Source of the DNA: Candidatus Doudnabacteria bacterium
GTDB taxonomy: Bacteria; Patescibacteriota; Doudnabacteria; UBA920
Direction: 5' to 3'
Assembly (NCBI GenBank): GCA_038230955.1
Contig: JBBRMG010000001.1
Coordinates: 18,312-82,311 of the forward strand
DNA length: 64,000 bases
Shown: positions 19,183 to 28,239 of the stretch, piece after piece
Layout of the letters: every line of letters begins with the position of its first letter
How positions within the stretch are numbered: position 1 is the stretch's first letter
Notes under the pieces: generated by a model
Databases searched by the model: none
Told to the model about the DNA's origin: nothing
The model's input: the letters and a program-made list of their open reading frames with translations, nothing else
Made by a program: the position numbers and the translations under genes

Positions 19183-21309
19183 TTACTGTCCCTTACGGAC
19201 ATTAATACCAGCACGAGATTCAACGATCTTTTCAGTCACGTTGCGAGGGACTTCACCATAGTGGTCAAATTCCATAATGGAAGAGGCTTGGCCTTGGGTC
19301 ATAGACCGCAAAGTTGTGGCGTAACCAAACATTTCAGCCAACGGCACTTCAGCAGTAATAATTTTGCGATTAGTAATGTCTTCCATTTCATTAATCCGAG
19401 CACGCTTGGAATTAAGATCACCAATAACATCGCCCATGTTTGCTTCAGGGGTAGTGACAACCACTTTCATGATTGGTTCAAGCAAGATTGGTTCACCCTT
19501 CTTCACTGCTTCTTGGAAAGCCTTCGAACCGGCAATCTTGAACGCCATTTCAGAGGAATCAACTTCATGATATGAACCATCGTACAAAGTGACTTTAAAG
19601 TCGACTACGGGATAACCGGCGATAACACCGTTAGCGGCAGATTCCTGAACACCTTTGTCTACCGGCTTGATGTATTCTTTTGGAATAGCACCACCGACGA
19701 TTTCGTCGACGAACTCATAACCGGCACCGCGCTCAAGTGGGGTAACGCGCAAATATACGTGGCCATATTGACCCCGACCACCAGTTTGGCGGATGTATTT
19801 CGTTTCAGCCTGAGCTTCCTTTTTGAAAGACTCCTTGAAAGCTACTTCAGGCTTACCAACATTGGCTTCTACTTTAAATTCACGCTTCATGCGATCTACC
19901 AAAATTTCCAAATGCAATTCGCCCATACCAGCAATAATAGTTTGCTGAGTTTCTTCGTCGGAAGTAACTTTGAAAGTCGGATCTTCTTCCGCCAATTTCT
20001 GCATAGCAATACCCATTTTTTCTTGGTCAGCCTTTGTCTTCGGCTCAATCGACATAGAAATAACTGGGTCAGCAAATTTAATCTTTTCTAATTCAATGGG
20101 GTCAGATTCCGCGCAAAGGGTGTCGGCAGTAATAGTGTCTTTCGGACCTACTAAAGCACAAATATCACCGGCGTAGACTTCTTTCACTTCATCGCGCTGA
20201 TCAGCGCGCATGCGCACCATACGGCCAACGCGTTCACGGTTGCCACTGCGAGCATTTAGTACATACGAACCAGCTTCCAATTTTCCGGAATACACGCGGA
20301 AGAACACCAGACGACCAACGAATGGGTCGGTAGCGATTTTGAAAGCCAAAGCAGTAAACGGTTCGTCGTCACTTGGGTTACGAATTAGCTCTTCCCCATT
20401 GCGCGGGTTATGCCCCTTTACCGGACCCTTGTCTAACGGGCTTGGCAAGAAGTTAGTAACACCATCAAGCAATGTTCGAACAATGATACCGCGACCATCG
20501 CCGCCGAATACTGGGTAGAACTCACCGGAACGAGTCGCTTTGCGGATAGCAATCATTAATTCTTCTTCAGTCAATTCAGTACCACCAAGATACTTTTCCA
20601 TTAACTGGTCATCGAACTCGACGACCTTCTCTATTAATTCATGTCGATACTTTTCCGCCTTCTCTTTCATGTCAGCCGGTACTTCACCCACGACGAATTC
20701 TTTATCAGTAAAATCAGTGTACGTGTAGGTTTTCATCTGCACCAAATCAATTACACCATTGATTTCTTTTTCGAAACCTAACGGCAATTGGACCGGAAAA
20801 GCGTTCTTGGTTAAACGAGTGTGAATAGATTCAAGCGACTTGTAGAAGTCACCGCCAGTTTGGTTTATTTTGTTGATGAAACACATGCGAGGCACACCAT
20901 ATTTGTCAGCTTGGCGCCACACAGTTTCGCTTTGCGGCTCAACACCCATCTTCCCGTCGAATACGGTAATGGCCCCATCGAGCACACGCAAAGACCGTTC
21001 CACTTCAACGGTAAAGTCTACGTGGCCTGGGGTATCGATAATGTTAATCTTGTACTTCTTGTCTTTTCCATCAATGCTGATGTATTGCGGATTCCAGTAA
21101 CAGGTAACCGCAGCGGAGGTAATGGTAATACCGCGCTCGCGTTCCTGCTCCATCCAGTCAGTCACGGTTTCACCTTCGTGCACCGCACCAATTTTGTGGA
21201 TCATCCCCGTGTGAAAGAGAATACCCTCAGTCGTCGTGGTTTTACCCGCGTCGATGTGAGCGATAATCCCGATATTGCGGGTGTCTTCAATTGCGTAATC
21301 TCGAGGCAT
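19183..21309 (-). CDS. fusA: elongation factor G
   Basis: 708 aa with [17 protein letters not shown] and NKxD motifs. Confidence 0.97.
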
Positions 21310-21357
21310 AGTTTAATGGTTATTTATTGGGGGTTTTATAGGTTTTATTGTCATTAC

Positions 21358-21386
21358 TTGACAAATCTATTTTTTTATGCTATAGT
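21358..21386 (+). promoter_or_regulatory. consensus sigma70-type promoter (TTGACA, 17 nt, TATAGT) driving the small ORF 21409-21567
   Basis: ttgaca at 21358-21363, a 17-nt spacer, tatagt at 21381-21386, then a GGAGGA Shine-Dalgarno 9 nt before the ATG. Confidence 0.65.
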
Positions 21387-21408
21387 GCAGTTGGAGGATA
21401 TAGATTTT

Positions 21409-21567
21409 ATGAGAAACAAGACAGCGAGGGATTATGTATTCCCGATCATTTTATCTGCAATATTCGGTTTTGCTTTTGGCCTCTACAATAGAGGAACTGT
21501 GCAAGCCGGATTAGGATACGCTCTTGTCGGCGCAATCATCAGTTTTGGTATCAGACTAATGATGTAG
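21409..21567 (+). CDS. small hydrophobic protein (52 aa, two predicted TM segments)
   Basis: Near-consensus promoter, strong RBS, and a rho-independent terminator immediately downstream. Lies between fusA and rpsG on the opposite strand. Confidence 0.6.
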   Translation: MRNKTARDYVFPIILSAIFGFAFGLYNRGTVQAGLGYALVGAIISFGIRLMM

Positions 21568-21587
21568 AATTCGATGGGTTGCATGTT

Positions 21588-21623
21588 GACGGTTTGCTTT
21601 CACGAGTGAACCGTCTTTTTTTA
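21588..21623 (+). terminator. rho-independent terminator
   Basis: Stem gacggtt (21588-21594) / aaccgtc (21609-21615), then a T8 run. Confidence 0.75.
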
Positions 21624-21630
21624 TTCCCTA

Positions 21631-22143
21631 CTATTTCCGCTTGTTACCGAACCTTGCAAAGTGAGCAAACGCTTTGTTTGCTTCAGCCATACGGTGAGTA
21701 TCTTCGCGCTTCTTGAAAGCAGTTCCCTGCTTCTGAAAACCATCTAAGATTTCACCGGCCAGCTTCTGAGCCATTGGGGCGCCTTTTTTGCTGCGAGCAG
21801 CATTGATCATCCATTTCATACCTAATGCGGTACGACGAGGTTCTGGTACTTCCATCGGCACCTGGTAGTTTGAGCCACCAATACGGCGACCCTTAATTTC
21901 CATAATTGGGCTGATGTTTTTCAAAGCAGTTTCAAATATTTCGCGATTGTCTTTGTCAGCAGCGTCCGGAATATTCTTGGACTTTTCAGCAACAATATCT
22001 AAAGCTGTGTAAAAGATTTTCTGAGATACGGTCTTCTTGCCGCGTTCCATCATATAGTTGATGAACTTGGCGTACTTCACACTGCTGAACTTTGGATCCG
22101 GCAGTGGAGTGTGTTTATCGTAACTTCTTGCTCTGCGTGGCAT
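21631..22143 (-). CDS. rpsG: 30S ribosomal protein S7
   Basis: 170 aa with S7 motifs and str-operon position. Confidence 0.93.
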   Translation of the reverse strand: MPRRARSYDKHTPLPDPKFSSVKYAKFINYMMERGKKTVSQKIFYTALDIVAEKSKNIPDAADKDNREIFETALKNISPIMEIKGRRIGGSNYQVPMEVPEPRRTALGMKWMINAARSKKGAPMAQKLAGEILDGFQKQGTAFKKREDTHRMAEANKAFAHFARFGNKRK

Positions 22144-22274
22144 GTCGTCGTAAATTTAGTTCCCGGTTTCGTAGTCGAATAAATTCAACTTCTCAACCTT
22201 TCACTAAATTTCTCCTCTAAGAATTTTGCTTAACTCCCTATAGGGAGCCCAAGTAAAATTCTTTGTAATTACTG

Positions 22275-22700
22275 TTAAGCAGCCGGGGCTGGGCGCTTAG
22301 CGCCATATTTGCTGCGAGAGCGTCGACGACCTTCAACGCCTAGAGTATCTAACTTACCGCGGACAATGTGATAGCGCACACCTGGCAAATCTTTCACACG
22401 ACCACCGCGAATCATAACCACACTGTGTTCCTGCAAGTTGTGGCCAACTCCCGGGATATATGCGAGTACTTCCATACCGTTGGTCAATTTGACCTTAGCA
22501 ACCTTACGCAAAGCCGAGTTCGGCTTCTTTGGGGTGGTGGTATAAACCTTTAGACAAACGCCGCGAATAAACGGAGCGCCAGTTGGCAGGTTGATAACCT
22601 TGTTCTTGATAAGGTTCACGCGACGTTGCAGGGCCGGAGATTTGCTCTTCGACTTCAACGGATGGCGTCCCTTTCTCACAATCTGGTTGATTGTAGGCAT
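22275..22700 (-). CDS. rpsL: 30S ribosomal protein S12
   Basis: PTINQxxRKGR N-terminus and PKKPNSAxRKV. Confidence 0.96.
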
Positions 22701-22973: not shown

Positions 22974-23216
22974 ATGTCTACCTCAATTACCAAGCAAAAA
23001 AATGAAGCTCTAAGTATTTCCCTGCCTGCCCAATTAAAGCGGGATTTATTGAAACGGGCTCAAAATGACAACGTTGCCGTTAGTCAAGTAGTAGCTGAGG
23101 CTCTCAAAAAACATTTAATTCTCAAGGAATGGCGGGATTTGCAAGACATTTTTGGACCGGCACTGTTAAAACTTGGTATTGATTCAGATGAAGCAGTTGA
23201 GGAATACTTCGGATAA
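22974..23216 (+). CDS. ribbon-helix-helix (CopG-like) antitoxin
   Basis: 80 aa. The RHH pattern is SISLPAQLKRDLLKRAQNDNVAVSQVVAEAL. Its stop lies 2 nt before the PIN gene start. Confidence 0.7.
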   Translation: MSTSITKQKNEALSISLPAQLKRDLLKRAQNDNVAVSQVVAEALKKHLILKEWRDLQDIFGPALLKLGIDSDEAVEEYFG

Positions 23217-23218
23217 TA

Positions 23219-23641
23219 ATGCGATTTGTATGTGATACAAACATATATCTGGCAGCACTTCGTCGAGGTGGTTTTTGTAATACTGTACTGGAATTGATAT
23301 TAAGCACTGACAATACTCATGAATTGTGGGTTTCTGAATTTATCATTCAAGAAACCAAGAAAAAAGCTGCAGTGTTTGCTCTAAAAAAGCTCGCGTCTCA
23401 ATATGATATTGACAGAATTCTGCAAACAATTGAATCGAGCGCTCATATTTCATTTCCTTCCCGTGAACGAATCACTAATGTCTCACGTGATCCCGACGAC
23501 AATAGAATTCTGGAATGCGCTGTGTCGGCTCAAGCCGATGTTATCGTCACTATGGATAAAGATTTATTGGTGCTAAAACAATTTCGCGGCATTGCCATAG
23601 TCCATCCCAAAACTTTCATTTACATGCAGCCCAAGGACTAA
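23219..23641 (+). CDS. PIN-domain toxin (VapC-like)
   Basis: Acidic PIN residues are present (CDTN near the N-terminus, then DPDDNRILECA and VTMDKD). Confidence 0.75.
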   Translation: MRFVCDTNIYLAALRRGGFCNTVLELILSTDNTHELWVSEFIIQETKKKAAVFALKKLASQYDIDRILQTIESSAHISFPSRERITNVSRDPDDNRILECAVSAQADVIVTMDKDLLVLKQFRGIAIVHPKTFIYMQPKD

Positions 23642-24642
23642 GCATCCTCTCTTGTTAACATTTCCTCTAGCACACTTTCTTTAATACCATAGGTATTGCC
23701 ATGATTCATCAAGCCCAAATATGACTGCAAAGTCTCGTCCATGGGACTATTGCGTAATTGCTTCATCATTCTGCGCTTGGTAGTAGTGCGTATAACAGTG
23801 TGATCAGGAAAATGCACCCAGCCAAGAAAATCTACTCCCGAAACAAAAGTTTTCAGATACAGCTTATCCGGGTGCAATGTCAAATTTAGCCTACTTTTCA
23901 AGAATTCTGAAATTTGGGCAATTTGAGAAATTAACGCTTCTCTATCGTCGGACAAAAATACAAAATCATCAGCGTATCTTATGTAGTATTTTGCGTGCAA
24001 TTTGTGTTTCACAAACTGATCAAACTCATTCATATAAATATTACAGAACAGCTGTGATGTTAAATTACCTAATGGTAACCCAACTCCCGGCAAGGTAGAA
24101 AAACTATCAATAATTTGCTCCAGTAATTGCATTAGAGGTAAGTCCGAAATATATTGAGACAGTATACCTATGAGTACTCCATGATTAATGCTGGCAAAAA
24201 ACTTTTTTATATCACACTTTAAGACCCAACATGTCCGTCTATGGTTTCTACTCACTTTATAGGCAAACGCACGGAACCTCTTTATCGCCTTGTACGTTCC
24301 CTTATCAATCCGGCATGAATAGGAATTAGCAATAAAAGTCCTATCAAAAAACGGATACAATGTCCGGTACAAAGCGTGATGCAAAATCCTGTCTCGCACA
24401 GAAGCCTTGTGAATCTGTCGCGGTTTGGGATCAGTAATGCTAAATGCGCTATAATATGAGTGCTGGTATGTGCCGCTGGCCAAATCCCTATGCAACTCAA
24501 TGAGATTGCCCATTAAATTATGTTCAAATTCTTGCACATCTTTACGCTGTCTTTTGCCCCGAACAAACTCAGTCCATGCTTCCAGTAAATTTTCTAGTGA
24601 AATAATATCTTTATAATCATGTCTGAATTGAACCTTGCTCAT
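23638..24642 (-). CDS. DGR reverse transcriptase
   Basis: YADDFVF catalytic motif. The DGR-specific motif LGNLTSQ carries SQ where other RTs have QGxxxSP. About 335 aa with no maturase or endonuclease domain. A TR/VR pair lies adjacent. The ORF continues 8 codons upstream to a TTG at 24666. Confidence 0.88.
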   Translation of the reverse strand: MSKVQFRHDYKDIISLENLLEAWTEFVRGKRQRKDVQEFEHNLMGNLIELHRDLASGTYQHSYYSAFSITDPKPRQIHKASVRDRILHHALYRTLYPFFDRTFIANSYSCRIDKGTYKAIKRFRAFAYKVSRNHRRTCWVLKCDIKKFFASINHGVLIGILSQYISDLPLMQLLEQIIDSFSTLPGVGLPLGNLTSQLFCNIYMNEFDQFVKHKLHAKYYIRYADDFVFLSDDREALISQIAQISEFLKSRLNLTLHPDKLYLKTFVSGVDFLGWVHFPDHTVIRTTTKRRMMKQLRNSPMDETLQSYLGLMNHGNTYGIKESVLEEMLTREDA

Positions 24643-25023
24643 AGTAATAATAGTACCCCCCCCCAACGGATTTTACCAGTATTGCAAAAAGTAAAAATTG
24701 CCTATTTGCTATGGTTTGATTATTACCAAATTCTGCCCAAGTTACATAGGCATTCATTAGGCCATAAAGTCGATAATTTGTTTGTCGAACTCATAGAAGC
24801 GATAGTTTCTGCCAGTTTCTTGTCCCCGCACGAAAAACTACCTTATATTAGGCTAGCCATTAAGAAAAACGACACAGTCAAAATCCTGTTGATGATGCTA
24901 TGGGAAACCCACTCCCTGGATGGCAAACAATATATTGCGCTGTCTGTAAAAATCGACGAAATCGGAAGAATGCTCGGTGGTTGGAATGGTCAAATCACAA
25001 AACAAAACTCTCCTCGAAAATAG
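24619..25023 (+). CDS. avd: DGR accessory variability determinant (Avd-like)
   Basis: The C-terminus EIGRMLGGWNGQITKQ closely resembles Bordetella phage bAvd (EVGRILGSWIARVNRK), and upstream helices align. Lies next to the TR. It is on the strand opposite to the RT. Confidence 0.7.
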   Translation: MSELNLAHSNNSTPPQRILPVLQKVKIAYLLWFDYYQILPKLHRHSLGHKVDNLFVELIEAIVSASFLSPHEKLPYIRLAIKKNDTVKILLMMLWETHSLDGKQYIALSVKIDEIGRMLGGWNGQITKQNSPRK

Positions 25024-25043
25024 GAGGAGAGAAATGAAAGAGA

Positions 25044-25175
25044 ATTGCGGACGCGAAACACAAACTCGTTGTTGCCATTCCAATGATTGTCTAGCTTGCC
25101 ATTGTTGTTGTTCAACCACGGTTCGTCGTCGTTCCGATTGACGTTGAACAGATTCGGATTGCCGTTCGGGTCAGT
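25044..25175 (-). repeat. DGR template repeat (TR)
   Basis: About 132 nt and about 80% identical to the 3' end of the target gene. Nearly all mismatches place TR adenines on the coding strand against non-A bases in the VR. AAC-rich codons (NNNNG, NGNN). Non-coding. Confidence 0.88.
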
Positions 25176-25493
25176 TTTGTATAATATGCCGTCTGCTACA
25201 CCATCCTTTGAGTGCTCTGTTAGCATTCTGGGGATTGAATCGTATTCGGCATTTAAATATGCCCTAGCATACTACACCAAGTTTCTTCATTTTTTTGAAG
25301 TGTCTGCATGCACCACTCTATTTTTAACCGTAATCAAAAATATTCCCGAGGCATGGATACTGGATTCGGTAGCAAACAACCATAATCGTTTGCGTATGCA
25401 CCTATTACCAATGGTATTATAGCAAAAATTTAGGCTGCAAAGGACAAAGATACAAAGTGCCAAGACTAGAGCAAGCTAGTCAAGCACCAAGGA

Positions 25494-27587
25494 CTATTTG
25501 CGGACGCGAAACACAAACCCGTCGCTGCCATCCCAACGATCGCCTAGCTTGCCACTGCTGCTGAGCAACCACGGCCCGTCGTCGTGCCGATAGACGTCGA
25601 ACAGACGCGGACCGCCACCCGAGCCAGTTATGGGGTCCATGGCTATTCTTAAGTATTCACCATTCGGCTGGTCAGCATATGCCAATCTCAATTCTGGCCC
25701 TGTTTGCGGCGGACACAGTTCTAAATTTAATTCTTTAACCCTGTTGAAAATAGCTTCTAGGTTAGCACCGTTAGGAAATCCTAATTGCTCGACCGTAAAT
25801 TTAACCAAATCAACGCGTTCAGACTCGGACAATGCCCGTATTTTTACCAACATGCTTTTAGCGTAGTCAGATATTCTATTTCCTGTTTTCACTAGCTCCT
25901 GCTCGTATTGCATAGGAGTTTTAGTAGACAGCTCAATAGTTTTTCTGAATATCTTTTTCTCTGGGAAAGACTCATATAAATGCTGAATATGTTCAGGCAT
26001 TGTTCGCATTATGTCCGGAGACCACTGGCCAATATATAACTTTGTAGATTCCTTTATTTCCTGCTGCCCCAGAGCGATTTCTTCAGGCTTGCAGTCTATA
26101 TTGGCCACAATGCGAATAATCTTAGCGACGTCGGTCCTAGTCATATCAGGCGTAATTTCCATCTCACCCATTTTGAGGACAAAGACATTGTCATCCGGGT
26201 TAAAATCGTGAAAATCAACTTCACCATGCTCGGTTAAAATATGGTAGTCTTTGACTTTAATATTTCCCAGTTCGCTGTCAGAAATTTTCCTAAAGTCCCG
26301 CAGTTGGCCGGTGTCCGTTTGGGTAGTGCGAAGCTGTTTCAAAGCATCGATTACATCTGCAAAGTAAGGATCCTCCGGACTTAGGTATTCATCGTCCTGC
26401 TTCTTCATTTGCTCAATAGTTTTGGTTTTAAGATTATATTCCATTGTAATAATGGGCGTATCTCGATATACCTTTTGGCTACCGTTATCAAACTTAGGAG
26501 TTACCCTGAATGACAAAATTTCAATTTCACCACGCTTCATCTGGTTGATATACGAATCGCTTGTGCCAACGCAGTGTCTCATGTATTCTGATTCTTCCTC
26601 TAAGTGCGGCATGTTCAGCATGCGAGCGACATAATATTTACCTGACTCAGTTTGAACTAGATTTTCCCACGGATTCACCGCTGCGCTGTCTCCCATTTCC
26701 GCCCGCTTTTTGCGCATCTCTGCAATTTTTTGCAAAGTTTTTTCTTGGTGAACTTCCAGTAGCCGGTGCAAGCTACCTTTATCCGTATCGATAAATTTAG
26801 GGCTTTCGATAATAGCGTCAAATAAGTCATTCAAATCTATACTTTCATTGGCCGTGAAATGACGCGCCAATTTGAGTCTCAGCACGCTCTGCTGGCGCTG
26901 ATCAAAAGCAAAGTCTTGCTGACCGGAAAGCCTGCCACTTAAAGTTTGGTACGCACCATTGATGGCACTTTCTTTTTGCGGCTTGTTGTCAGGAGAAAAT
27001 GAACCCAAGGTTTGTTGGTATCGTTGGTTGAGTTCAGTTAAATACTTGGCTTCAAAAGCTTTTTTACGTTCTTCATCAACTTGCTCTGGCGATTTATCTT
27101 CTGTCAGTGGTTTCTCGTAATAATCGACTGCGTATCCTGCCATATTGTCTGTACGAATGCGTTCAAAGCCGAATCGTTCTAGGACATGATTCAACCTATC
27201 ATTCCAGCCATGAAAATTGAGCCGCATATAACCTTGTTGTTTTGCGTATTCTATGAAAGCTGGTATCTCCCGTAAAGCGCTGCGACCAGTCTGACGGGTA
27301 GTGCCGAAATACTTTATGTAAGCTTCATGCGGAATAAATTCTTCGCAGGCAATATAGCCAGTTATTTCACCTTTATCGCCAGTAATCAATTTGTTGAGAG
27401 GATGGCCATTTTCAAGTGTGCGGATGACATCCTCTACTGCCATAGACCGAATAGCCTCATCCACTTCAGTAATGCCTTGTGTGATAGCGCGGACGCTATC
27501 TTTTTGCTCCTCATTCATAACCAAGCCCGGCTTTTCTTCCAAGCGTTCCGGTATATATACGGTTTCTGGTGTATGACCTGTTTCCAT
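25494..27587 (-). CDS. DGR target protein carrying the C-terminal VR
   Basis: 698 aa from ATG 27587. The ORF is open to 27650 but that would overlap the upstream gene. The C-terminal 44 aa are encoded by the VR (…DPITGSGGGPRLFDVYRHDDGPWLLSSSGKLGDRWDGSDGFVFRVRK). Confidence 0.8.
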   Translation of the reverse strand: METGHTPETVYIPERLEEKPGLVMNEEQKDSVRAITQGITEVDEAIRSMAVEDVIRTLENGHPLNKLITGDKGEITGYIACEEFIPHEAYIKYFGTTRQTGRSALREIPAFIEYAKQQGYMRLNFHGWNDRLNHVLERFGFERIRTDNMAGYAVDYYEKPLTEDKSPEQVDEERKKAFEAKYLTELNQRYQQTLGSFSPDNKPQKESAINGAYQTLSGRLSGQQDFAFDQRQQSVLRLKLARHFTANESIDLNDLFDAIIESPKFIDTDKGSLHRLLEVHQEKTLQKIAEMRKKRAEMGDSAAVNPWENLVQTESGKYYVARMLNMPHLEEESEYMRHCVGTSDSYINQMKRGEIEILSFRVTPKFDNGSQKVYRDTPIITMEYNLKTKTIEQMKKQDDEYLSPEDPYFADVIDALKQLRTTQTDTGQLRDFRKISDSELGNIKVKDYHILTEHGEVDFHDFNPDDNVFVLKMGEMEITPDMTRTDVAKIIRIVANIDCKPEEIALGQQEIKESTKLYIGQWSPDIMRTMPEHIQHLYESFPEKKIFRKTIELSTKTPMQYEQELVKTGNRISDYAKSMLVKIRALSESERVDLVKFTVEQLGFPNGANLEAIFNRVKELNLELCPPQTGPELRLAYADQPNGEYLRIAMDPITGSGGGPRLFDVYRHDDGPWLLSSSGKLGDRWDGSDGFVFRVRK
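25497..25628 (-). repeat. DGR variable repeat (VR) at the 3' end of the target gene
   Basis: Aligns to the TR with about 25 adenine-specific substitutions. Followed 6 nt after the stop codon by the hairpin 25457-25487. Confidence 0.88.
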
Positions 27588-27630
27588 AACTATATTATTA
27601 CAAATATTATAACTCGAGTAAATCGTGGAC

Positions 27631-28239
27631 CTATAACAACTGTACCCCAATAACCCTTGAGAACACCGATACCACCGGCAACAAAATACGTTCTAGTAAC
27701 CCCAAATACAACATTATAAACACCAGAATAAATCCGAACCGTTCCCACTCTAAAATTTTGTAAGTTAGTGCATCGGGCAGGAATGAGGCTACCACTTTGC
27801 TACCATCGAGCGGTGGGATTGGGATAAGATTGAAAGTGCCCAAAACAATGTTAAGTAGTACTATCTGAGTCAAAATTGGTAAGGAAATATAGTTAGTCAA
27901 ACCCAGCTTAATTGGAATAGCGAAGATAATAGCCAAAGCAAAATTGCTCAAGGGTCCAGCGAGGCTAACCAAAGCCATACCGAGTTTACGGGGCTGAAGT
28001 CGATTAAAATTAACGGGCACCGGCTTGGCCGCACCGAAGATTATAGGACTGCCCAGCAATAATAAAGCGGCTGGCAAAAGAATCGAGCCGAATGGGTCAA
28101 TGTGAGAAATTGGGTTTAAAGTAATGCGGCCCTGTTCTCGGGCGGTATCATCACCCAGTCGTTCGGCCATTAATCCATGACAAACTTCGTGGATAATCGC
28201 AGAAAATAAAAGGATTGCTAAAGTGATTATTATGTTCAT
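27631..28239 (-). CDS. site-2 protease family (peptidase M50) membrane metalloprotease
   Basis: HEVCHG HExxH motif in a TM segment. Polytopic. Confidence 0.8.
   Translation of the reverse strand: MNIIITLAILLFSAIIHEVCHGLMAERLGDDTAREQGRITLNPISHIDPFGSILLPAALLLLGSPIIFGAAKPVPVNFNRLQPRKLGMALVSLAGPLSNFALAIIFAIPIKLGLTNYISLPILTQIVLLNIVLGTFNLIPIPPLDGSKVVASFLPDALTYKILEWERFGFILVFIMLYLGLLERILLPVVSVFSRVIGVQLL

Follow-up and report, generated by a model that had tools for sequence, protein, structure and literature searches.

A repeat tract at the start of an inverted avd gene suggests a possible slippage switch in a Patescibacteria diversity-generating retroelement

The locus described here raises the question of how two genes on opposite strands can each begin inside the first codons of the other. 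It lies in a 64,000-nucleotide (nt) stretch of Candidatus Doudnabacteria bacterium (assembly GCA_038230955.1, contig JBBRMG010000001.1), which we call the window and whose positions are used throughout. The window carries a diversity-generating retroelement (DGR) with a reverse transcriptase (RT) gene on the minus strand and an open reading frame (ORF) assigned to avd on the plus strand. An earlier interpretation made from the letters alone (the sequence-only reading) had noted that the two ATG codons overlap, and had offered two options, a rare architecture or one misassigned start. The overlap was confirmed, since the ATG codons at 24619 and 24642 share 24 nt, and both options failed. Judging from related loci, we consider it likely that this is a DGR of architecture B3 in which both starts are real and avd is switched by slippage of a simple repeat. 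This repeat, a run of nine C that the sequence-only reading had not mentioned, is the most interesting feature of the avd/RT junction. The junction consists of the following parts.

23638 to 24642, minus strand: DGR reverse transcriptase gene, 334 amino acids (aa) from the ATG at 24642, with an in-frame TTG upstream at 24666.
24619 to 25023, plus strand: avd, 134 aa from the ATG at 24619 to a TAG stop codon, on the strand opposite all other DGR parts.
24619 to 24642, both strands: head-to-head overlap ATGTCTGAATTGAACCTTGCTCAT, 24 nt, formed by avd codons 1 to 8 and RT codons 1 to 8.
24656 to 24664, plus strand: simple-sequence tract C9, in avd codons 13 to 16 (T-P-P-Q), 14 nt upstream of the RT ATG.

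The C9 tract is the longest homopolymer of the window, the next being C6. We compared the junction with its relatives, defined as the 160 best-scoring tblastn loci (80 from genomes and 80 from metagenomes). The search was anchored on Avd, so in-frame N-termini are favoured in this set. The junctions were aligned by anchoring on the Avd core, and the relatives displayed a common order: a conserved ATG, a few variable codons, a repeat in nearly every locus, and the core R-[IL]-L-P-[VL]-L-Q-K. Of 130 loci, 88 had poly-C (C7 to C12) as their tract. Others carried, in its place, (CAAC)n, (GCCA)n, (CA)n, (CAAT)n, (GA)n, (ACGA)n or a 7-nt unit, with tracts of up to 78 nt. Repeats of this kind were concentrated at the junction. 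In 903 kb of related loci, poly-C/G runs of at least 8 nt were found 73 times in the junction of about 70 nt and twice elsewhere, and repeats of longer units 15 times in the junction and once elsewhere. In all loci the tract lay 14–16 nt upstream of the RT ATG.

The reading frame was then examined in 108 non-identical junctions, with a tract defined as at least 7 nt. Among loci with a tract, the avd ATG was in frame with the core in 42 and out of frame in 50 (42, 28 and 22 loci in frames 0, 1 and 2, respectively). Among tract-free loci, 15 were in frame and 1 was out of frame (Fisher p = 2.7e-4 compared with the tract loci; p = 8e-7 compared with an expectation of one-third), p-values that are optimistic for phylogenetically related loci, with the tract-free loci forming roughly nine sequence groups and the tract/no-tract comparison sharing the in-frame bias of tblastn. 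The distance from the ATG to the core in the tract-free in-frame loci was 66, 69 or 75 nt, all multiples of 3. These whole-codon steps fit a constraint on the reading frame and not on promoter spacing.

Tract length also differed between loci with identical surroundings. Locus L090 has C8 and an avd ATG in frame with the core (ON), loci L046 and L118 have C9 and are out of frame (OFF), and both 200-nt flanks are 100% identical among them. Likewise, L081 (C9, ON) and L154 (C10, OFF) are 100% identical in both 200-nt flanks. The (GCCA) tracts of related loci measured 37, 41 and 45 nt. The genes of the OFF loci were intact, as evidenced by an Avd core that stays open for 109 codons or more in all 56 and by a median RT ORF length of 334 codons, the same as in ON loci. 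When the tract of the window was altered in silico, C9 gave the 134-aa Avd and C12 restored the frame, and C7, C8, C10 and C11 gave peptides of 24–33 aa. The comparative features of a contingency locus were found together at this site, namely an early slippage-prone tract, ON and OFF alleles, intact genes in OFF loci and a frame that is fixed after loss of the tract.

We propose the following mechanism. One-base slippage at C9 during replication would shift the ATG into another frame than that of the predicted four-helix core of Avd, leaving a short peptide, and a second slip would restore the frame. The C9 allele of the window would then be the ON state. In the Bordetella DGR, cDNA synthesis requires Avd together with the RT. 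Because cDNA synthesis needs Avd in that system, the tract would turn adenine mutagenesis of the target ON and OFF, heritably and reversibly. We infer both that switching occurs within populations and that OFF alleles give no Avd product. True phase variation of Avd is, on the evidence of these alignments, fairly probable. We lean slightly towards the further view that a hypermutable switch governs targeted hypermutation, with a repeat selected at one precise spot, inside the early codons of a leaderless avd and the leader of the divergent RT, Avd turned on and off stochastically, and diversifying and frozen lineages coexisting.

For this mechanism the avd ATG has to be a real start, and the relatives bear on this point. 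In the window, each ATG is the reverse complement of the CAT codon for His-8 of the other gene. Of the 130 loci in which both starts could be placed, 74 had an ATG-to-ATG overlap of 24 nt and 41 had one of 21 nt (115/130). The avd ATG was present in about nine-tenths of the loci where both starts could be examined, and its frame relative to the core varied. The RT ATG at 24642 (residue 1) aligned with the RT start of relatives, its 334-aa product is the one called publicly, and avd was in frame with the core in 15 of the 16 loci without a repeat tract. Misassignment of one start, the second option of the sequence-only reading, does not agree with this recurrence, and both ATG codons (24619 and 24642) are very probably the true starts.

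Several other start codons were considered and set aside. For avd, the codons homologous to TTG 24628, TTG 24682 and ATT 24670 were mostly non-start codons, alike in ON and OFF loci. For the RT, TTG 24666 lies inside the variable tract and is unconserved. No conserved start codon was found past the tract, where Leu-19 is encoded by a mixture of TTG, TTA, CTA, CTG and ATA, again alike in ON and OFF loci. A sub-family of five loci (L065, L121, L124, L129 and L155) has a different geometry, with a 2-nt overlap of the avd and RT ATG codons inside a shared CATG palindrome and a poly-C run that begins two codons past the avd ATG.

We also searched the junction for promoters. The candidate for avd is the following element.

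24606 to 24611, plus strand: -10-like hexamer TATCTT (TAnnnT), 7 nt before the avd ATG (-13 to -8), inside RT codons 11 to 13.

A TAnnnT hexamer occupied -13 to -8 on the avd strand in 96 of 103 unique junctions. The amino acid of the RT codon opposite -12 to -10 is free to vary among D, Y, H and N; nevertheless, this codon was NAT in 91 of 92 cases, compared with 63% NAT at such codons elsewhere in RT genes (p = 3.5e-17). It is the A in second place of the hexamer that corresponds to the constrained wobble base. Since the free RT codon is nearly always NAT, coding constraint alone is disfavoured as the explanation of the hexamer, and a -10 box at RT codons 11–13 probably drives avd, as far as sequence conservation can indicate. 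A -10 box that ends 7 nt before the ATG would make the avd mRNA leaderless, with transcription beginning at the ATG or beside it. This would fit a gene that lacks a Shine-Dalgarno sequence and starts strictly with ATG. For the RT, a -10 box or ribosome-binding site was not consistently present in the 103 unique junctions. A leaderless RT mRNA received no clear support, as TAnnnT upstream of the RT ATG was inconsistently placed (29 at -13, 24 at -7 and 11 at -10; n = 103). The expectation of the sequence-only reading that each promoter sits inside the other gene held for avd, whose candidate hexamer lies in RT codons 11–13; on the RT side no consistent -10 box was found. Within avd, a sigma-70 scan gave one promoter-like site (24820–24849, plus strand), fewer than in shuffled sequences.

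Three other explanations of the tract were weighed. The first places its function in the RT gene: it would be a poly-G leader or promoter spacer whose length tunes RT expression, a codon other than ATG past the tract would start Avd, and the upstream ATG would be a mere antisense of RT His-8. That the tract keeps nearly the same distance from the RT ATG throughout the loci fits this explanation, as does the lack of a Shine-Dalgarno sequence or a consistent -10 box between the two. Some public gene calls begin Avd at MP[LV]LQK, past the tract. Moreover, the exact 134-aa Avd is missing from a collection of 15 billion proteins that contains the exact 334-aa RT and the EF-G of the same contig, and public annotation presumably starts avd elsewhere or leaves it out. 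However, the tract-free loci hold the frame 15 to 1 at distances of 66, 69 or 75 nt, which promoter spacing would forbid. In addition, no conserved start exists past the tract and OFF loci show no enrichment of codons that could serve as starts; tracts that are not G, such as (TTGG)n or (TG)n, cannot serve as a Shine-Dalgarno sequence; and the -10 box is positioned for a transcript from the upstream ATG. Taken together, we regard this explanation as unlikely.

The second alternative accepts the avd start and treats the tract as a rheostat, in which RNA-polymerase slippage or ribosomal frameshifting yields some Avd from out-of-frame alleles, so that alleles differ in level. Homopolymers of at least 9 nt are known sites of transcriptional slippage, and the intact Avd cores of all 56 out-of-frame loci agree with some production of Avd. 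Intact cores, however, are equally expected under reversible switching at the DNA level. Furthermore, other lineages have tracts of tetranucleotide, dinucleotide or heptanucleotide units at this site, and such tracts are substrates for DNA slippage and atypical for transcriptional slippage. A rheostat is improbable in our judgement, somewhat more so than an action on the RT.

The weakest alternative, an annotation artefact in which avd starts at TTG 24682 or the RT at TTG 24666 and the tract is neutral low-complexity DNA whose lengths are assembly errors, can point to in-frame TTG codons for avd (24628 and 24682) and for the RT (24666) and to Avd profile alignments that begin at residue 19 (NCBIfam) or 31 (Pfam), but it is very hard to sustain when the RT TTG lies in the variable tract while the RT ATG aligns across loci, relatives have TTA, CTT or TTG for the avd codon at 24682 (Leu-22), tracts number 73 at a single site and 2 elsewhere, with several types of repeat unit at one position, and tract-free loci hold the frame.

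The switch that we favour presupposes that the plus-strand ORF is Avd and that the region is a DGR. The protein matched Pfam PF22296 (bAvd) at 42.7 bits over residues 31–123, above the gathering cut-off of 40. NCBIfam NF033474 (DivGenRetAVD) aligned from residue 19 with 52.9 bits and E 3.8e-14, below its equivalog cut-off of 80. There were 438 homologues, the best about 70% identical, and the named ones were all from Patescibacteria. An AlphaFold2 model (mean predicted local distance difference test score, pLDDT, 69) contained helices at 18–38, 41–66 and 70–100 and a weak helix at 112–129. These profile matches bear out the assignment of the ORF to Avd by the sequence-only reading. Avd was about 62–75% identical across many named Patescibacteria lineages and the RT about 56–68% in most loci; that Avd is so highly conserved may be due to its dual coding with the other strand, or the cassette may have spread horizontally.

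The remaining parts of the cassette are listed below. On the minus strand the order is target with its variable repeat (VR), template repeat (TR), reversed avd, and RT.

25494 to 27650, minus strand: DGR target gene, a 718-aa ORF with an uncertain true start and a C-terminal variable region.
25498 to 25632, minus strand: variable repeat (VR), a 135-nt direct repeat of the TR, 80% identical.
25045 to 25179, minus strand: template repeat (TR), with 45 A in 135 nt.

TR and VR differ at 27 positions, and read on the minus strand 25 of these fall on adenines of the copy at 25179..25045, which is why that copy is taken as the TR. The VR sits at the 3' end of the target ORF and ends 2 nt short of the stop codon. 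Profile searches matched the target to Pfam PF14284 (PcfJ; 32.4 bits, residues 296–419) and the RT to RVT_1 (79.5 bits). The RT, encoded close by the TR, contains LGNLTSQ, which fits what we take to be the DGR signature [I/L]GxxxSQ. With an A-specific TR/VR pair, an RT adjoining the TR and a VR that ends a target gene, the region is almost certainly a chromosomal DGR of Patescibacteria (the candidate phyla radiation, CPR) with B3 anatomy. The spacer between VR and TR (25180–25497, minus strand) is 318 nt long and non-coding, and relatives are similar, their TR and VR starts lying about 450 nt apart. This spacer could be the location of the promoter of the TR RNA.

The same arrangement was found in the relatives. 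The RT was immediately divergent from avd in 77 of the 80 genome loci, a recurrence that speaks against a chance ORF, and all informative loci among the 160 Patescibacteria relatives had the B3 layout. In 130 of the 153 relatives with enough flank, the TR was likewise situated directly beyond the avd stop codon. These 130 loci also had a VR about 450 nt beyond the TR on the same strand, and in 126 of them at least 80% of the mismatches fell at TR adenines. In Wu et al. 2018 (NAR, PMC5758913), architecture B3, TR-(avd)-RT, covers 90% of their CPR DGR set. The position of avd opposite RT, TR and VR, as the sequence-only reading had described it, agrees with the ORF coordinates and the TR/VR orientation. 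A rare architecture, the other option of that reading, fails on the B3 share of the CPR set and on the uniform layout of the informative relatives. The inverted avd is already catalogued and typical for the lineage, and both as a DGR and as a B3 DGR the cassette of the window is an ordinary member.

Several observations weigh against the slippage-switch reading or limit it. The differences in tract length are known from assembled loci and not from reads, and homopolymer lengths in assemblies are open to miscalling; miscalling cannot account for the tetranucleotide or heptanucleotide tracts. The best tblastn hits favour in-frame N-termini and the loci are related by descent, which inflates the significance of the frame statistics. 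Lying 14 nt upstream of the RT ATG, the tract may affect the RT instead of, or besides, avd, and OFF alleles might yield Avd through transcriptional or ribosomal slippage or a non-canonical start. On the side of the protein, the NF033474 score stays under the equivalog cut-off, a Foldseek search against the PDB placed bAvd (4dwl) at ranks 3 and 6 with a non-significant E of about 1, and a PDB sequence search with the Avd profile gave no match at E up to 1. On the side of the promoter, the hexamer region also encodes the conserved RT N-terminus, so that the -10 box overlaps conserved RT codons, and a generic sigma-70 scan found nothing at the junction.

A second set of overlapping elements was found at the other end of avd, where the gene meets the TR. 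Three elements follow the TR on the minus strand.

25032 to 25044, minus strand: conserved linker TTCTCTTTCATTT, family consensus CTCTCTTCATTT, between the TR end and the hairpin.
25008 to 25031, minus strand: hairpin, CTCTCCTC / loop / GAGGAGAG, immediately 3' of the TR, with the avd stop codon TAG (25021–25023) in the loop.
25000 to 25007, minus strand: U-run TTTTGTTT, directly after the hairpin, antisense of the Avd codons K-Q-N.

A terminator-like hairpin spanning the avd stop codon was present in all of about 130 unique relatives. In a MAFFT alignment of 88 sequences, 93.7% of hairpin cells were paired and 7 of 8 pairs had changed on both sides. None of 500 shuffles paired as well, and slid controls gave 35–68%. 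The G and TTTT past the stem were invariant in 88 of 88 aligned sequences, and the linker columns were nearly invariant whether Avd-coding or not. The codons of the Avd tail, KQNSP...GEK, are the antisense of the U-run and the hairpin arms (25000–25031). In loci with the avd stop codon in the loop, the 3' arm and the linker are still conserved as non-coding DNA. Because they are kept even where non-coding, the constraint acts on the nucleic acid, and the strong protein-level conservation of the Avd tail likely reflects this RNA or DNA constraint.

The linker, the covarying hairpin and the U-run would together form a 3' structural element of the TR RNA. By analogy with known elements, the hairpin may be an Avd-binding stem-loop as in Bordetella, an intrinsic terminator, or both. 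A G+C-rich hairpin followed by a U-run matches the pattern of an intrinsic terminator, an Avd-binding role is equally possible, and termination itself is a prediction. RNAalifold on 114 sequences returned the post-TR hairpin and no further conserved structure in the antisense of avd, the place expected for a spacer RNA of the Bordetella kind, and Rfam gave no match in 23400–27800. A duplex resembling a cPRT stop, between GUUUUGU after the hairpin and ACAAAAC at the 5' edge of the TR, was rejected as chance because the partner occurred in 6 of 122 loci. On the plus strand, GGAGGAG precedes an ATG at 25035 that opens a Cys-rich ORF (25024–25141; MKENCGRETQTRCCHS...), antisense of a hairpin arm and the TR; this ORF is probably not a gene.

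The cassette has close neighbours. At 22974–23641 on the plus strand, an 80-aa ORF is followed by a PIN-domain protein (PF13470, E 3.7e-15), resembling a VapBC toxin-antitoxin pair. This pair converges on the RT, its stop codon at 23641 overlapping the RT stop codon at 23638 by 4 nt. Also adjoining the DGR, at 19183–22700 on the minus strand, are ORFs resembling the str operon, read from their translations as S12 (22700..22275), S7 (22143..21631) and EF-G (21309..19183). Wu et al. 2018 (PMC5758913) describe ribosomal protein genes inside some CPR DGR cassettes.

We searched the literature for DGR or Avd in combination with phase variation, repeats, homopolymers or frameshifts, and no case was reported in what the search covered, which did not include Paul et al. 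2017 (Nat Microbiol). Keyword searches of Wu et al. 2018 (PMC5758913) and Roux et al. 2021 gave no repeat or phase-variation terms, and the CPR and Avd passages of a 2021 RT review contained nothing on repeats. The new part is the conserved repeat tract in avd together with the putative phase variation of Avd, probably a new regulatory variant.

To our knowledge, little is understood of how cells control their DGRs. Should Avd prove phase-variable, population-level bet-hedging of DGR activity would follow for the Patescibacteria, which are very rich in DGRs, and this would explain how episymbionts with tiny genomes can afford a mutagenic retroelement. It would also be a regulatory principle of DGRs for which our literature search found no description. 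For cellular DGRs, one review states that stress may induce hypermutation. There are consequences for annotation as well. In such cassettes avd is mis-started or missed by gene callers, and OFF alleles are liable to be labelled pseudogenes. The locus is an extreme case of dual coding, in which RT codons appear to hold the avd promoter, avd codons hold the predicted 3' hairpin of the TR RNA, and the two start codons are mutually antisense.

Among known systems, the window is closest to the B3 DGRs of the CPR, described by Wu et al. 2018 (PMC5758913), and to clade 2 of Roux et al. 2021, with the same order, orientation and host group. PcfJ-like target domains are listed for CPR DGRs. A keyword search of parts of PMC5758913 turned up neither the overlapping ATG codons nor the avd repeat tract nor the -10 box.

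The DGR of Bordetella phage BPP-1 (mtd-avd-TR-brt) shares with the window an RT and Avd, adenine-specific TR/VR differences, a VR at the 3' end of the target and a stem-loop after the TR. Unlike in BPP-1, avd in the window is inverted between TR and RT, and the RNA 3' of the TR is antisense avd and not a dedicated spacer. In addition, the hairpin of the window is followed by an invariant U-run, its avd carries a repeat tract, and its DGR is part of a chromosome, not of a phage. The closest known counterpart of the hairpin is the Avd-binding stem-loop Sp 3-33 (Handa et al., bioRxiv 10.1101/2023.10.23.563531). According to that work, the BPP-1 stem-loop just 3' of the TR has 11 bp and binds the Avd pentamer, and putative equivalents occur in 207 of 278 Avd-containing DGRs, including those of the CPR. 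The two elements share their position and a stem of 8–12 bp; in contrast to Sp 3-33, the hairpin of the window leads directly into GUUUUGUUU, like an intrinsic terminator, and is encoded antisense to the avd stop region.

For the tract itself, the comparison is with the contingency loci of Haemophilus, Neisseria and Campylobacter (review PMC11868660). The window differs from these in that the gene encodes the cofactor of a mutagenic retroelement and not a surface or restriction-modification function, that the hosts are uncultivated Patescibacteria, that the tract also lies in the leader of a divergent RT gene, and that switching is inferred here from sequences alone. What the two have in common is a tract a few codons past the ATG that sets ON and OFF frames, a tract length that varies between otherwise identical sequences, and a great rarity of such tracts elsewhere.

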